Virus record (IMG/VR): IMGVR_UViG_2838022645_000001
From: an uncultured virus (IMG/VR IMGVR_UViG_2838022645_000001)
Lineage: Duplodnaviria; Heunggongvirae; Uroviricota; Caudoviricetes
Direction: 5' to 3' (one strand)
Length of the DNA stretch: 20,000 nucleotides
Each line of letters opens with the position of its first letter. The stretch's first letter is position 1. Positions 7,678 through 15,121 of this stretch are shown in pieces. The position numbers and the translations under genes are program-made. The notes beneath the pieces were generated by a model. The model made no database searches. It saw only the letters and a list, made by a program, of their open reading frames with translations, and was not told the origin of the DNA.

Positions 7678-7992
7678 ATGGCTTTTTCAGGCCTTCATGT
7701 CGTTTGCGGTTATCCCGGCTCTCTGTTCGCTCGAGACAAATCCCAGGCCATCCTCGGCAAGATCGCATGGAGCGAGGCACCGACCAGCGGCGTGACGTCC
7801 ACCAACGTCGCTCCGACCGAAAGCGCCGGCTCCGGTCAGGCAATGTTCCGCATCCGCGCCGCCGCCGATTCCTGGGTATCGGTCGGCCCGACGCCGGACG
7901 CGACGACCGGCAAGCGCTTCCTTGTTCCGGCCGCGACTGACTACGACGTCTACGCCGAGCCGGGCGACAAATTCCAGTGGGTGGAGGCATAA
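7678..7992 (+). CDS. Phage hypothetical protein (predicted all-beta)
   Basis: 104 aa, AGGAG RBS, typical codon usage. Confidence 0.7.
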   Translation: MAFSGLHVVCGYPGSLFARDKSQAILGKIAWSEAPTSGVTSTNVAPTESAGSGQAMFRIRAAADSWVSVGPTPDATTGKRFLVPAATDYDVYAEPGDKFQWVEA

Positions 7993-7996
7993 CCAT

Positions 7997-9391
7997 ATGT
8001 CGACTCTGCAACTTGGTAGGGTGCCAAATCAGGCGCCCATTTCCATACCGGCGCGAGGTTACCGGCTTGGCGTCATCGGCACGTCCCTCGTGCAGCATAA
8101 TGAGAACGGCACATTTAGCCCGAAGATCTCCCACTGGTCACGCGGCTGGTTGTCTTGGGCGCGCTTCTATGCTGGCCGCCTATTCTCCTGCCCGATTTGG
8201 TGGGATAGCACTGTTTATGTCGGTTGGGAGCCTTCAGGAGTAGGTGGCGCGACGCGCTATTTTCAGGGCCTCAATGCAGGTGTCAGCGGCCAGACCTATG
8301 CGCAGATCGAAGCGCGCAAAGCGTATCTCGCTACCAAAGTTGATTGCGACATCATCATTATCGATGACGGCACCAATGACATGGGGCCCCAAACGAAAGA
8401 AAGCATCCAAGCCGCTCGCGAGGCGCTTGCAAGCTACTACCTGTCTTTCGGAAAAATCGTCATCCTCATGCCCATACTTGCGCGCGGCGTGGGTTCATGG
8501 ACTGGGGGCGGTCCAGAAAGGGCGAAGGCACATTGGATTAATCGCAAGACGCGCGAGTTTTGCCGCACCAAGAAGAATTGTTATTTCTTTGACTGGAACC
8601 TGTATTGGGCTGATTTAGCCTCAACCTACGGTGAACCGAAGAGCGGCTATTCCCCAGACTCCATCCACTTTAACCCGAAGGGTGGGGAATCGGTCGGATA
8701 TGGTTTGGTCCAGTTTCTCGCTACGATTTTGCCAGCCGCACAGAACTTCACGGCATATCCTGATGACTTGTTCGACGCCACGAACAACCCGCTGGGCAAC
8801 GTGTTGACGAATCCGCTCTGCCTCGGCACGACCGGGACGCTCGGTACTGGCGCTACAGGTTCAGTTGCGAATGGAATGCGGGTCGAGCGCTCATCAGGAG
8901 GATCGTCGGTCGTTGCATCAAAGGAAGCGAGATCGGATGGTCTCGGTGAATATGAGGTCATGACATTCACGCCGGCGGGTACGGCGGAAGACCTATTTTA
9001 CTTCCGCACCAACGCAGCTAACACGGCCCTGACGGGTGCCGTGGCTGGCGAGTGGTTCCAAGCCCGCTGCAAGGTTGAGACGAACAACTATGCAGGATTT
9101 ACCGGGGTTTCGTTGCTTCTGAATGATCAGGGCTCAACCTCGATGTCGGCTTACGCGATGGAGCCGTTTAACAGCGGTTCAGCCAACGAAAAATGGGCCG
9201 CACTCGCGCGCGCTGGTTATCTCGAAACGCCTGCGTTCCAAATCGCTGACGCTGCTCCTAACGTTCGTTGGCGGTTGGAAATTCGCTTTGACGCCAATGT
9301 GGCCGGTACGCCGATCGTCAAGTGCGGCGAAGTCGAGTTGCGTAAGGTGTCCGATCCGCGCACTCTCTTGCACTGGTCCGCGCCAGCGTAA
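7997..9391 (+). CDS. SGNH/GDSL-family esterase with a C-terminal beta-sandwich (carbohydrate-binding-like) domain
   Basis: ATG 7997 after GGAGG; block I 'GTSLV', block II 'NAGVSG', block III 'GTND', block V 'DSIH'; 464 aa. Confidence 0.82.
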   Translation: MSTLQLGRVPNQAPISIPARGYRLGVIGTSLVQHNENGTFSPKISHWSRGWLSWARFYAGRLFSCPIWWDSTVYVGWEPSGVGGATRYFQGLNAGVSGQTYAQIEARKAYLATKVDCDIIIIDDGTNDMGPQTKESIQAAREALASYYLSFGKIVILMPILARGVGSWTGGGPERAKAHWINRKTREFCRTKKNCYFFDWNLYWADLASTYGEPKSGYSPDSIHFNPKGGESVGYGLVQFLATILPAAQNFTAYPDDLFDATNNPLGNVLTNPLCLGTTGTLGTGATGSVANGMRVERSSGGSSVVASKEARSDGLGEYEVMTFTPAGTAEDLFYFRTNAANTALTGAVAGEWFQARCKVETNNYAGFTGVSLLLNDQGSTSMSAYAMEPFNSGSANEKWAALARAGYLETPAFQIADAAPNVRWRLEIRFDANVAGTPIVKCGEVELRKVSDPRTLLHWSAPA

Positions 9392-9403: not shown

Positions 9404-9438
9404 AGCCGCCTCGCCTTAACCGGTGAGGCGGCTTTTTT
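9404..9438 (+). terminator. Rho-independent terminator ending the late/lysis transcript
   Basis: AGCCGCCTCGCC-ttaacc-GGTGAGGCGGCT 12-bp stem (one G-U pair) followed by a T tract; lies between convergent genes. Confidence 0.9.
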
Positions 9439-9781: not shown

Positions 9782-10797
9782 ATGACAAAGCCGCCTCGCA
9801 AGCCTTCCCAGCACTTGCTGGGTGACGCGGATGCACCACTCCGCCGCCGGCGCCGCCGGCGGCGCGATCCCGCCCAATCTCAACTGCTTCTCGACCCCAT
9901 GCCGGCGCGCGTCGCTCCTTGTCTCGCGCTCCTCAAGCCGCGGCCGCCGAAAGGTCCGCAATGGGCATATGAAGTAAAATGGGACGGCTACCGCCTGGCC
10001 ATCCACATTGAACCTGGCGGCGTCCGCATTCTGACGCGCGGCGGCCATAACTGGACGGACCGTTTTCCCGCCATCGCCGCCCAGGCAAAGCGTCTTCCTG
10101 TTTCGACGGCGATACTGGACGGTGAGGCCGTCGTGTTTGACGAACTGGGCCGGTCGGATTTCGGCAAGCTTCAGCAGTCGCTCGGTGGCAAGGGCGGAAA
10201 GCGGATATCGTTGGAGTCGGTCTTAATGGTCTTCGATGTCCTCTATCTCGCCGGCGCCATCTCCTCGAGGGGATAGTGCCGCCCGGCGGGGAGGAAGCTA
10301 TTCGCCTCTCCGAGGAGATCGAAGCGGACGGTGAAACGCTTCTGCGCATCGCCTGCGAGCATGGGCTTGAAGGCATCATCGCCAAGGATCGGAACAGCAC
10401 CTATCGCGGCGGTAGGTACGGCGACTGGCTGAAGATCAAATGCATCCAGAGCGACGGCTTTGCCATCATTGGCTATCAGAAATCTAGCTCGGCGTTCGGA
10501 AATATCGGCGCGCTGCTGCTTGCGGCGCGAAAGGACGGGAAATTGGTCTACGTCGGATCGGTCGGGACGGGCTTTAAGGCAGACCAGGCAATGCAGCTGC
10601 GTGCAACCATGGACAAGATGAAGGTGTCAGCGCCAGCGGTTAGGTACACTGGCCGGCGCAAGAACCTGATATGGATTAAGCCCACTCTGGTCGCCGAGAT
10701 CGAGTATCGATCCTGGACGCATGACGGCAAGCTACGGCATCCGTCATATAAGGGTCTGCGGGATCCAGCGGATAATTCTGCCATCTATGAATTTTAG
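9782..10797 (+). pseudogene. ligD: ATP-dependent DNA ligase (LigD ligase-domain type), frameshifted near 10250
   Basis: Motifs I (EVKWDGYR), III (LDGE) and IIIa (VFDVL) lie in ORF 9782-10276. Motifs IV (EGIIAK), V (WLKIK) and VI (LRHPSYKG) lie in a different frame that ends at 10797. The usual 'DG.DL' segment after FD.L is missing. Confidence 0.85.
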
Positions 10798-10900: not shown

Positions 10901-11611
10901 ATGAGATTCTACAGATATGCGGCCGTAGCCGTTCTGACATTCGCAATCACCATGTTCGGTGTCGTCGCGCTCGCCGTGCCGAGCCAGCCGGTCTATACCA
11001 CGGTCACCAATACGATCGTCCAGGCGCCGGCGACCACATCCGAAGATTCGTCCATCAAGATTTCCGTCGGCAATGGCCTCGGCTCCGGCGTCCACATCGG
11101 CGGCGGCAATATCGTGACGGCGGCACACGTCATCGACGACGCCAAGACGGTCAAGATCAAGACCAATGCCGGCATCGAGAGCGATGCGACAGTGCTCTGG
11201 GTCAACAAAGACTACGACATCGCGCTGATCCACACCGACGGCAACGTCGCCGGTTCCAGCGAGCTTGATTGCCGTGAGCCGCGATTCGGCGAGCAGATCC
11301 AGGCCGTCGGCAATCCGCTTGGCATGGAGTTCATCGCGTCGTTCGGCAGAGTTGCCGGTGCTGGCCGCCAGCTAGGCAACTGGAAGAGCGTTGTCGTAAC
11401 TGACATGACCACGGTCATGGGACAATCAGGTGGCGGCATCTTTGCAAATGACGGCCGCGTGGTCGGCATCAATGTCGGCGTTACTCTTGCGCCGCTCAAG
11501 TCCGGCAAGGATGCAGCCGGCGCCGACACCTACACGCCGACCATGACCGGCTTCGGCTTCGTGGTTCCGGCTTCGGTTGTTTGCGATCTGCTGGCGCGGA
11601 GGGCTTCGTGA
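10901..11611 (+). CDS. Exported trypsin-like (S1/HtrA-type, no PDZ) serine protease
   Basis: N-terminal signal/TM; 'GSGV', 'TAAHV' (His), 'DIALI' (Asp), 'GQSGG' (Ser). Confidence 0.9.
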   Translation: MRFYRYAAVAVLTFAITMFGVVALAVPSQPVYTTVTNTIVQAPATTSEDSSIKISVGNGLGSGVHIGGGNIVTAAHVIDDAKTVKIKTNAGIESDATVLWVNKDYDIALIHTDGNVAGSSELDCREPRFGEQIQAVGNPLGMEFIASFGRVAGAGRQLGNWKSVVVTDMTTVMGQSGGGIFANDGRVVGINVGVTLAPLKSGKDAAGADTYTPTMTGFGFVVPASVVCDLLARRAS

Positions 11612-11751
11612 TGCGGGCGCTCTTCACCTTTTTCACTGTAACGTGCGGGCTTCTATCTGTTGCGTTTTCAAATGCCGACATGCGCGGCGGAACATTGTTC
11701 ATGGTGTTCTTTTGCGCGCTGTTCGCGTCAATGAGGGAGGCAACCATATGA
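11611..11751 (+). CDS. 46-aa two-TM peptide (not in the ORF track)
   Basis: MRALFTFFTVTCGLLSVAFSNADMRGGTLFMVFFCALFASMREATI. TGATG overlap with the protease stop, ATGA overlap with the next start, GGAGG upstream. Confidence 0.65.
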   Translation: MRALFTFFTVTCGLLSVAFSNADMRGGTLFMVFFCALFASMREATI

Positions 11752-12290
11752 CGGCCCTCTCGAGATACATTGTCGCCAATGTCTGCTGGATTTCGGTCAT
11801 GGTGTGGGCGGCGGTCCTGGGCTTCGTCCAGATGGCATTCCTCGCCGACGCAGCGCACATAAGCTACGTCATCACGGCATTGTTCATCTTCGGCCTGTAT
11901 TCGACAACAGCGCGCATCATCGAAGTCGATAGGCTTTCGACGGCGCTCTCCAAGAAGAGAATTTGGGTCGCCGGCGAGCGGCGCGCCTTGGCCAAGGGCG
12001 CAAGGTTGCTTGCTATCCGCATCGAACATGTTGTCGACGTCATCGAGGGCCTCGTCCTCATCGGCCTGATCGGCAACGCCATAGGGTTTTTCATGGCCTT
12101 CAGGCATGTCGACATATCTGCGATGAAGTCCAGTGACGGAGTTATGGCGAATGCTGCTCATCTCATGGCTGGGACGGGCACAGCGTTCGGTGCAACCATT
12201 GTCGGATGCGTTCTCGCTCTCTGGACGATCCAGAATGGCCGAATGCTGAAGACGGCTGCCGCGATATACGCCGAGGATATCGCGGAATGA
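11748..12290 (+). CDS. MotA/TolQ/ExbB proton-channel family membrane protein
   Basis: ATG 11748 after GGAGG; 180 aa, about four TM helices; 'LIGLIGNAIGFFMAF' and 'AGTGTAFGATIVG' match the two conserved C-terminal helices (GL.GT..G...AF; G...A..TT..G). Confidence 0.75.
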   Translation: MTALSRYIVANVCWISVMVWAAVLGFVQMAFLADAAHISYVITALFIFGLYSTTARIIEVDRLSTALSKKRIWVAGERRALAKGARLLAIRIEHVVDVIEGLVLIGLIGNAIGFFMAFRHVDISAMKSSDGVMANAAHLMAGTGTAFGATIVGCVLALWTIQNGRMLKTAAAIYAEDIAE

Positions 12291-12844
12291 GCAGCGGCAA
12301 GGCAACTTCAATAGGCTTCAGAGACGTTCTTCTGTGCCTAAATGCTGTCCTCGGTGCGCTTGTTCTCATCGTTCTTTCGGCAATCAATCCGGCGGCCAAA
12401 GATGATCCCGCCCAGCTGCCCGGCAACCTCGTCGCCAGCATCGCCTGGCCAGCTGGCAGCACTGACGTCGACTTGTGGGTCCAGTATGGCGATGATCTAG
12501 CCGTCGGCTACAGCCATCGCTCCGATCGCGTTTGGAGTCTTCTTCGCGACGATCTGGGCACCGCGAATGACGATACACCTTTGAACGCGGAATCCGCCTT
12601 CACACGCGGCCTGCCTGATGGCGAGTATGCCATCAACGTTCGCTGCTTCGGCTGCGCAAAGGTGCCGGTGCCAGTGTCCGTCGAGGTGCGGCTGGCCGAA
12701 GGTGGCGTCGTATGGCGCGCCACGGTCGACCTACTCAAGGACAAGCAGGAGCGGACGGCGATCCGGTTTCGTATGGCTGGCGGGCAGGTCGTGCCTGGTT
12801 CGGCGTCGAGTGTGTTCAAGCAGATGAAGAGAGGAGAGGGGTGA
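12287..12844 (+). CDS. Single-TM protein with ExbD/MotB-like TM Asp and a YfaP/DUF2135-like extracytoplasmic domain
   Basis: ATGA overlap with the upstream gene; 'FRDVLL' at the start of the TM; 'W.....DVDLWV', 'RDDLG', 'N.E....RG...GEY.INV'; 185 aa. Confidence 0.65.
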   Translation: MSSGKATSIGFRDVLLCLNAVLGALVLIVLSAINPAAKDDPAQLPGNLVASIAWPAGSTDVDLWVQYGDDLAVGYSHRSDRVWSLLRDDLGTANDDTPLNAESAFTRGLPDGEYAINVRCFGCAKVPVPVSVEVRLAEGGVVWRATVDLLKDKQERTAIRFRMAGGQVVPGSASSVFKQMKRGEG

Positions 12845-13104
12845 TGGAAATAGTGATCGCAGTAGCAATTTGGCTTGGCATTGGCGCGGCTGGCTCCGCA
12901 CTTAGTGTCGAGTTCTTCTGGCGTCGTGGGTCATTCCCTATGGACGTCGATCTGACAGACGTCGGATTCTTCTCGGTGATGGCGATACTCGGGCCAATCA
13001 ACCTGATCATCGGATTTCTTTTCGCACTCGGATGGCTATTTCGGAAAGCTCTCAAGTCGTCTGGAATCGACCCGCAAGCAAAAATCCTCAAGGCGCGCCG
13101 CTAA
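12844..13104 (+). CDS. Two-TM membrane protein
   Basis: ATG 12844 (TGATG overlap), AGGAG RBS; 86 aa, two hydrophobic helices, basic C-terminal tail. Confidence 0.7.
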   Translation: MEIVIAVAIWLGIGAAGSALSVEFFWRRGSFPMDVDLTDVGFFSVMAILGPINLIIGFLFALGWLFRKALKSSGIDPQAKILKARR

Positions 13105-13541
13105 TGACCCCCGCCATCACCCTATGGCTAGCCTTCGTGCTGGCCGCCGGCATTATTTGCTGGACAGCAAATAACAAGCGGCAAGCCGTCGCCTTCCTGC
13201 TTGTCGCACTGGCAACCGCACCCGCAGCATTCATCACGCTCGGCCACGCTGCGCCATGGCAGCCCGCCAAAGGCCACTACACCGTGCTTGGCGCGCGCAT
13301 CGATGTCGACGAGGCAATCTATGTCCTACTCGACGGCAAGCCGGAGCCGCGCTTCTACAAGCTGCCGTATTCCGCCCAGCAGGCGAACAGTCTGCAGAAC
13401 GCGCTTGACACCGCCGAGGCCAACGGCACTGGCGTCGGCATGACAATGGACGGCGATGCGGCAGGCTTTGCCGAAGAGGGCGGCCAGCGAGGCGGATCCG
13501 AAGTGAAGCAGGCTGAGCCGCAAGCGATTATTGGAGGGTAG
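13104..13541 (+). CDS. Membrane protein with two N-terminal TMs and a soluble 'PRFYKLPYS' domain
   Basis: ATG 13104 (TAATG overlap); 145 aa. Confidence 0.7.
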   Translation: MTPAITLWLAFVLAAGIICWTANNKRQAVAFLLVALATAPAAFITLGHAAPWQPAKGHYTVLGARIDVDEAIYVLLDGKPEPRFYKLPYSAQQANSLQNALDTAEANGTGVGMTMDGDAAGFAEEGGQRGGSEVKQAEPQAIIGG

Positions 13542-13870: not shown

Positions 13871-15121
13871 ATGCCCACACCTCGCCTCAGTGACGAACTC
13901 GCCAAGGAAGCCGCCGACGCGTTCGAAGCGCTCGGCAACAAATCGCAGGCCGCCGAACTGCTCGGCCTGCCGCGCAACACGTTCAATTCGCGCCTGAAGA
14001 TCGCCGCCGAGCGCGGCATGTGCGGCACGAAGCCGGTTCTGCCGGGGTTCCGCATCGCGCAGATCAGCAACACGCCGAACGGCGACTATATCAAGCAGCG
14101 GCCGGAAGCTGGCGCCGAATTCGACATCCCAGCCGGGCATACCATCAAGGGCGTCTCTGCGCTCGTCGACGCGGACGGCCGGACTATCCAGCAATGGATC
14201 AAGACCCGCAACGAATACGCGCCGCAAGACGTCGCCGCCATTCTCAAGGAAGCGTTCGTCGATGTGCCGCCGGCTGAGCCTAGAGCACTCAATACCGTCC
14301 CGACCGACGACCTTCTGACGCTCACGCCCCTTGCGGATTTCCACGTCGGTTTGTTCGCATGGCATCGCGAGACAGGCGCCAATTGGGATCTATCGATCGC
14401 CGAACGGGTAATCGGCGGGGCGCTCGACGAGTTGATCGCCAGAACGCCACCGAGCGGCCATGCCATCGTATTGGGTGGCGGCGACCTGCTCCACTCGGAT
14501 AGCAATGAGAACAAGACGGCAAAGTCTGGCAACGTCCTGCAGGTCGACGGGCGTTACCAGAAGGTGCTGATGACGGCGTGCCGACTGGTCGTCCGCGCGA
14601 TCGACGCCAACCTCGCTAGGCACGGCCATGTTACTGTCCGCATCTTGCCGGGCAATCATGACGAACACGCCTCGGTGGCCGTCGCCTACTTCCTGCTGGC
14701 CTGGTATCGCAATGAGCCGCGCGTCACCGTCGACGTGGATCCGTCGCTGTTCTTCTGGTTCCGCTTCGGGCGCGTCTTATTGGGGGCAACGCACGGCCAC
14801 ACGGTCAAGCTCAAGGATATGGCCAGCATCATGGCCCACCGCCGCGCCGAGGACTGGGGCGCTACCGTGCATCGATTCATTCACGGCTTCCACATCCACC
14901 ACTCGAGCAAGTATGCGACGGAGGGCAACGGCGTGATTTCGGAATCGCACCAGACACCGACGCCGCAGGATGCGTGGCATTGGGGCGCAGGCTTCCTGTC
15001 TGGCCGCTCGATGCAGTCGATTAGCTACCATCGCGAGTTTGGTGAAGTCTCGCGTGTGCGGGTCGCCATGATGGATGCGGCAAACGATAACGAGCCGGCA
15101 GAGCAGAGGAGGGCGGCGTGA
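13871..15121 (+). CDS. Fis-type HTH fused to a calcineurin-like metallophosphoesterase
   Basis: ATG 13871 after GGAG; 'GNKSQAAELLGLPRNTFNSRL' HTH; motifs DFHVG, GGDLLH, GNHD, HGH, FHIHH; 416 aa. Confidence 0.85.
   Translation: MPTPRLSDELAKEAADAFEALGNKSQAAELLGLPRNTFNSRLKIAAERGMCGTKPVLPGFRIAQISNTPNGDYIKQRPEAGAEFDIPAGHTIKGVSALVDADGRTIQQWIKTRNEYAPQDVAAILKEAFVDVPPAEPRALNTVPTDDLLTLTPLADFHVGLFAWHRETGANWDLSIAERVIGGALDELIARTPPSGHAIVLGGGDLLHSDSNENKTAKSGNVLQVDGRYQKVLMTACRLVVRAIDANLARHGHVTVRILPGNHDEHASVAVAYFLLAWYRNEPRVTVDVDPSLFFWFRFGRVLLGATHGHTVKLKDMASIMAHRRAEDWGATVHRFIHGFHIHHSSKYATEGNGVISESHQTPTPQDAWHWGAGFLSGRSMQSISYHREFGEVSRVRVAMMDAANDNEPAEQRRAA

Follow-up and report, generated by a model that had tools for sequence, protein, structure and literature searches.

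The window carries a conserved module of three genes, A-B-C, and not four as a sequence-only reading had proposed. A is homologous to the membrane core of MotA, ExbB and ZorA, and the three genes are conserved, co-occur, are under purifying selection and are inherited together. On balance, we lean towards A-B-C being a working ion-driven motor of the inner membrane, and more tentatively suggest that it serves envelope remodelling in phages. A conserved protease gene upstream of the module had been overlooked.

Gene content of the prophage window

The window is the whole stretch of 20,000 nucleotides that was analysed, and it corresponds to C9:45231-65230 of the host genome. It lies in a prophage of about 66 kb whose ends are marked by direct repeats of 57 bp, one copy at C9:268 and the other, which overlaps a tRNA-Thr gene, at C9:66212. 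Pfam and PHROGs searches placed tail-fibre, endolysin and spanin genes to the left of A-B-C, with ligase, protease, phosphoesterase, pyrophosphatase and nucleotide-kinase genes around it, and the nearest named relatives of B were from Rhizobium. The four open reading frames claimed at 11748..13541 were present at these coordinates and overlapped stop to start. The features of the region are:

10901..11611, + strand: trypsin-like serine protease with a hydrophobic segment at the N-terminus; its triad motifs are intact
11611..11751, + strand: hydrophobic ORF of 46 aa in a variable slot between the protease and A
11748..12290, + strand: A, MotA/ExbB/ZorA-family subunit of 180 aa with four predicted membrane helices, a short cytoplasmic loop, Asn110 and Thr150
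12287..12844, + strand: B, 185 aa; a single membrane helix at 6-33 carries Asp13, and a TerD/DUF2135-like beta-sandwich spans 48-164
12844..13104, + strand: X, 86-aa two-helix protein, a variable insert between B and C
13104..13541, + strand: C, 145 aa; two membrane helices precede a domain at 55-124 that probably has an OB fold and is predicted to be periplasmic

Elsewhere in the window, a GDSL/SGNH hydrolase moron (7922-9391) lies 3' of the lysis genes, and a strong terminator-like hairpin (9404-9433) follows it. The ATP-dependent DNA ligase is split over two consecutive ORFs at 9782-10797 (164 + 173 aa); in a relative (L005:3221-4273) it is a single 350-aa ORF, and the split form reflects either breakage of the gene or a faulty assembly. 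An HTH-fused phosphoesterase-like gene (phrog_704; 13871-15121) lies 3' of the module and was found there in 42/55 loci with the first profiles, and its sequence does not track that of C (rho 0.04). A promoter scan of the window returned 2 sites against 3.7 expected and was uninformative.

Subunit A is a MotA/ExbB/ZorA homologue

Hydropathy analysis of A revealed four hydrophobic stretches in its 180 residues. Window A matched Pfam MotA_ExbB at E 0.003, weaker than the curated cut-off, and 14 of the 15 aligned A members matched the same family (best E 1.8e-7). A profile built from 47 A sequences retrieved ZorA (E 1e-6), MotA (0.014) and ExbB (0.17) from the solved structures. The family search suggested in the earlier reading thus places A within the MotA/TolQ/ExbB core, and its description of A as a four-helix protein of this type was borne out. 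In most phage A proteins the cytoplasmic loop is shrunken and the protein is only 137 aa long. Two further A-like genes were found in the host genome (E 4e-11 and 0.002). Among the representatives, P0131 is a 342-aa A-B fusion, either genuine or a read-through artefact.

The reported change of a conserved GT to GN proved genuine, with Asn at position 110 in 27/37 rhizobial-phage rows and Thr in 51/51 others. Position 149 was Ser in 33/37 prophage-group rows and Thr in 48/51 others, and Thr150 was kept in 84/88 rows. Thr150 and position 110 may be equivalent to the polar Thr sites that face the Asp in 5:2 motors. Because two polar channel-side residues of A are changed in the prophage clade (Asn110 and Ser149), this clade may couple to ions differently or no longer do so.

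Subunit B joins an Asp-bearing helix to a beta-sandwich

The motif FRDVLL opens the sole helix of B, as had been read from the sequence. The structural model of B consists of one helix (residues 6-33) followed by an all-beta domain, with no helix after residue 33. The membrane Asp, on whose conservation the earlier proposal depended, was invariant in 88/88 aligned B partners, and among 150 distant B representatives it occupied this column in 127 of the 131 rows with a residue there. The exception was the bacterial family f210, in which Val replaced Asp in 4/4 sequences read. In this family (L139-L141) a Lys lies four residues past the Val, and a sensor-kinase-like gene in divergent orientation lies opposite the operon; f210 may have a rerouted ion path or act as a sensor.

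Comparison of the B domain with solved structures identified TerD as the best fold (Z 10.7, rmsd 3.2, 126 aligned; and Z 9.1), the next row scoring 6.3. The top Atlas model was DUF2135 on its aligned part (TM 0.72), a domain that we take to be YfaP-like, and the identity of B with TerD/DUF2135 domains was 10-12%. The YfaP-like assignment made earlier was therefore upheld by structure and not by sequence, in which 1/44 members reached DUF2135 (E 0.049). A sequence search of the solved structures with the B profile returned nothing below E 0.29, the viral structure library gave only TerD-like and unnamed matches, and in Pfam 0/44 B members matched OmpA families and 0/44 matched ExbD. No OmpA, ExbD or TonB folds appeared in the fold lists for B and C, an absence that on its own is not grounds for exclusion.

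Seven acidic or polar residues of B (D60, D62, D88, D89, D95, N100 and E102) were invariant and likely form a metal site. TerD binds calcium (PDB title 2kxt), and the B sandwich is likewise likely to be calcium-binding. Hydropathy and basic residues predict that the B and C domains are periplasmic.

C is the third member and X is a passenger

The downstream genes had been described as two more membrane proteins of the module, and this held for C and failed for X. The wider profiles recovered C in 54/55 loci, the single miss being a contig end, in line with the earlier nomination of the 13104-13541 protein. X (12844-13104) was rejected as a module part, as it occurred in 5/55 loci; the slot between B and C in the other loci holds different DNA of 101-1258 bp. 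No named family was found for B, C or X in Pfam, PHROGs, NCBIfam or PADLOC.

The model of C (145 aa) comprises two helices and a small compact domain, with no long force-transducing linker. Residues 55-124 gave OB-fold matches of middling score (Z ≤6.7), and Foldseek returned no match for C at E ≤0.001, its weak rows being OB folds. The C domain is thus a probable OB fold in the model. A relationship of B and C as homologues was unsupported (probability 20%). A weak search for longer fused forms of C gave one match, a tandem C-C protein; tandem duplication or self-fusion of C was seen in some chromosomal loci (L093, L099, L117; protein P0275).

A protease gene accompanies the module

With the first profiles, the protease gene was found upstream in 45/55 loci, and tblastn detected it in 0/49 chromosomal loci. 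Several phages (L031, L033, L038-L040, L055) had no such protease gene close to the trio. A distant phage (L035:4135-6576) has the rearranged order C - protease - A - B, and the protease link thus recurs outside the rhizobial clade. At the outgroup locus L105, Pfam identified a trypsin gene two genes upstream. The protease is a candidate accessory part of the module in the prophage clade.

The module is widespread on chromosomes and was probably captured at least twice by phages

We fetched 55 loci through B, about 8 of which were duplicates. The first profiles detected A in 54 and C in 48 of them, and the wider profiles detected A upstream of B in all 55. In 40 loci sampled at the level of the host's class, A preceded B in 40/40 and C came next in 34, the six misses being one contig end and five distant-outgroup rows. 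The genes therefore do co-occur elsewhere, as the proposed neighbourhood survey was meant to establish. In the outgroup loci L105, L106 and L122-L124, A-B pairs with longer B domains are followed by another gene in place of C.

The B profile gathered 2079 clusters at 50% identity. It matched 56/401 genomes of the host's class, often every sampled member of a family, and 17/401 genomes of the phylum, 4 of these being weak matches in long ORFs. Only 2/201 genomes of the host's family and 3/151 of its genus carried B, the host's own genome being included in both counts; the family copies were prophage-borne, and four other host-family copies that were checked all had the prophage gene order. The module is not phage-specific, since A-B-C also forms a stand-alone operon on chromosomes.

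Among 50,697 annotated phage records, B was matched in ten, all annotated as hypothetical. These comprise phage 16-3 and its relatives, together with two phages unrelated to them, RHph_N3_13 and RHph_I1_18 (171 kb). In phage 16-3 the trio is p038, p040 and p042, 3' of protease p036, and in RHph_N3_13 and RHph_I1_18 it is surrounded by replication and nucleotide genes or followed by tRNAs. Homing endonuclease-like genes were inserted between A and B at L002:5039-6010 and L009:5408-6001.

A quick FastTree tree of 98 rows, in which long branches meet, recovered a rhizobial prophage clade of 37 rows (support 98). In this tree the two Rhizobium phages that are lytic fell within cellular clade II, and a T4-like contig fell within clade I. 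The presence of phage copies in separate clades points to at least two captures, subject to the meeting of long branches. The distribution and the tree suggest a family that is mainly chromosomal in many Pseudomonadota and was picked up by phages at least twice.

Neighbouring ORFs were scanned for 132/132, 101/134 and 82/131 of those listed, and the neighbour counts are lower bounds because greedy ORF picking took wrong frames in GC-rich loci. Clade II neighbours were PQQ dehydrogenases, quinoprotein-relay genes or pqq genes, and those of clade I were varied. Clade II often had a fourth gene 3' of C, in up to three copies, encoding a predicted lipoprotein of about 235 aa; this unnamed family occurs at L144:8872-9582, L115:7252-7941 and 15 other loci, and is a candidate outer-membrane client of the motor. 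It was found in no phage locus and not in the host genome.

A, B and C are under purifying selection and are inherited together

The dN/dS ratios of six pairs were 0.06-0.19 for A, 0.08-0.15 for B and 0.11-0.53 for C, indicating purifying selection on all three genes. We compared distances among 29 related prophage loci, L009 having been dropped for a short downstream match. The B helix correlated strongly with A helices 3-4 (rho 0.80, partial r 0.69) and not at all with B's own periplasmic domain (rho 0.00), and A correlated weakly with the upstream protease (rho 0.13). DNA was inserted between A and B in 15/29 listed loci. Window A was 31-41% identical to the A of near relatives; against the same relatives, pN was 0.06-0.13 for the window B domain and 0.37-0.47 for its helix. 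Across 31 rows, the charge types were A-Glu/B-Arg in 13, A-Lys/B-Gln or Trp in 10 and A-Ala/B-Lys in 7, the window forming the remaining one. The tracking of A helices 3-4 by the B helix, in matched charge types, is evidence for an A-B pair, and plain linkage in a divergent, recombination-resistant block can also produce such co-inheritance.

The periplasmic domains of B and C correlated with rho 0.44 (partial 0.34). C also tracked the protease (partial r 0.28), and between the C helices and A there was no significant correlation (partial r 0.08-0.10). Shared ancestry may therefore account for some of the B-C signal.

Proposed mechanism and rival explanations

In the mechanism that we propose, which draws on the analogy of ExbBD-TonB and TolQR-TolA, a ring of A would encircle the Asp-bearing helices of B, and ions moving past Asp13 would make A rotate against B. 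C would be a third subunit engaged mainly through its periplasmic domain, and the B sandwich and the OB-like domain of C would together grip a periplasmic or outer-membrane client protein. The phage complex would then remodel the host envelope during infection, plausibly with the neighbouring protease. We infer with good confidence a 5:2 stoichiometry of A and B; ion flux through A-B is probable, and a contact with C is somewhat less so. The phage role is the most doubtful part, and we suggest only tentatively that it is envelope remodelling during infection. This role, with exclusion of later phages, is ranked first because of the middle-phase placement in lytic phages, the periplasm-facing protease and the splitting of the core into matched alleles; the trio has no direct tie to exclusion. 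Depolarisation and interference with host motors, the other roles envisaged in the sequence-only reading, agree less well with the data than does a self-contained complex that works.

The same motor could instead have an auxiliary metabolic role, maturing or energising periplasmic redox enzymes (PQQ dehydrogenases, cytochromes) and boosting the energy of the infected cell. PQQ dehydrogenase genes near 7/40 alphaproteobacterial loci, quinoprotein-relay genes in L100, pqqB before A in L145 and the TerD-like acidic motif set of B are in keeping with such a role, as is L143:3856-8830, where pqqB, pqqC and pqqE lead straight into A-B-C on one strand. However, 6/7 PQQ-labelled rows fall in cellular clade II, with the prophage clade across the tree, the clade II lipoprotein is missing from phage loci and host genome alike, and clade I has no such uniform neighbourhood; we regard a redox role in phages as unlikely. 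A gated ion channel, in which B and C respond to a signal in the periplasm (calcium or a phage protein) by opening a depolarising leak for exclusion or lysis timing, seems less probable still. It would suit the compact C without a force-transducing linker, the shrunken loop of most phage A proteins, the altered polar residues of A and the best solved match of A being ZorA, but whole families retain the same three-part design on their chromosomes, where a leak is an unlikely purpose, and the periplasmic domain of B is the most conserved part.

We consider it very improbable that the trio is a decoy that mixes with and poisons the TolQR, ExbBD or Zorya complexes of the host. In its favour, the host genome has two other A-like genes and the membrane core has diversified into several allele types, yet the matched inheritance of the A and B helices points to self-assembly, and a decoy would need neither C nor a conserved periplasmic domain. 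Neutral, decaying cargo from a chromosome is scarcely credible and largely refuted by dN/dS: B is split in prophage copy L049, with the same picture in L151, but purifying selection was found in 6/6 pairs tested, the phage clade spans 37 rows and lytic phages captured the module separately.

The working motor that we favour may be part of something broader, which we advance with reservation and judge rather less probable than the motor itself: an undescribed class of 5:2 motors that combines a calcium-binding sandwich with a third subunit of OB fold and works mechanically on periplasmic proteins. One bacterial branch would serve PQQ-enzyme systems, and in phages the class would be a repeatedly captured, protease-aided powered envelope remodeller whose charge-swapped A/B alleles are phage-specific compatibility types. 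If this is true, the 5:2 motors, which to our knowledge have all been described from bacteria, would gain a branch in the form of a large unnamed family whose partner domain and third subunit are new. A working motor carried by a phage and lacking in the host family would give phages a novel means of acting on the host envelope. With its 137 residues, the A of most phage copies would approximate a minimal motor ring. Phage 16-3 of Sinorhizobium meliloti is a classic genetic system, and the natural matched A/B alleles offer a ready specificity test in it.

Comparison with known systems

The literature within reach, which left out most subscription papers and the older 16-3 genetics, gave no description of the trio. 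The passages seen of PMC6277846 and PMC11837500 mention ExbB-family genes and establish no link to the A family, and the main text of PMC10460002, on the 16-3 relative AP-16-3, contains 0 occurrences of ExbB, MotA or superinfection. In the portions consulted of PMC9389320 and bioRxiv 10.64898/2026.04.14.718414, 5:2 motors are characterised by a conserved Asp on a single helix and a Thr on A. The B gene lies directly downstream of A across phage and chromosomal loci, some with inserts. Judged on sequence, the trio belongs to the 5:2 superfamily and falls outside the flagellar stators and the Ton, Tol and Zorya systems.

The trio resembles ExbB-ExbD-TonB and TolQ-TolR-TolA in its homologous A core and single-helix Asp partner, and also, as far as the available parts of PMC9389320 and PMC12505986 describe them, in its third membrane-anchored operon gene and lack of a plug. 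The clade II lipoprotein recalls Pal of the Tol system. In contrast to both systems, A has four predicted helices and B ends in an all-beta TerD/DUF2135-like sandwich; the ExbD fold is alpha/beta. TonB and TolA have one helix and a long linker; in C, two helices lead into a compact OB-like domain and there is no long linker. The reported absence of TonB/TolA stood, as 0/45 C members matched these families, and the phage loci contained no receptor or TolB/Pal gene.

ZorAB shares with the trio a phage-related setting, and ZorA is the best solved-structure and PADLOC match of the A membrane core. Unlike ZorAB, the trio is carried by phages, and A (180 aa against profiles of 494-1063) has no long ZorA tail, as had been noted. 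B had no PADLOC match to ZorB, and no Zorya effector was found among the window proteins scanned (6 in PADLOC; 29 in Pfam and PHROGs). With MotAB/PomAB the trio has in common a four-helix A, an Asp on B, a possibly equivalent Thr on the last helix and weak profile matches, but it lacks the torque-generating cytoplasmic domain, the plug helix, the OmpA-like domain and the flagellar context.

By description, the trio fits the broad non-flagellar group of 'generic ion transporters' in the sections seen of PMC12505986. Within section 8 and a term search of two supplements, that survey of non-flagellar homologues, with 379 sequences, names no DUF2135, YfaP or TerD partner. TerD and YfaP/DUF2135 proteins share with B the fold of its periplasmic domain and the acidic motifs, whereas in B this domain is fused to a motor-type helix.
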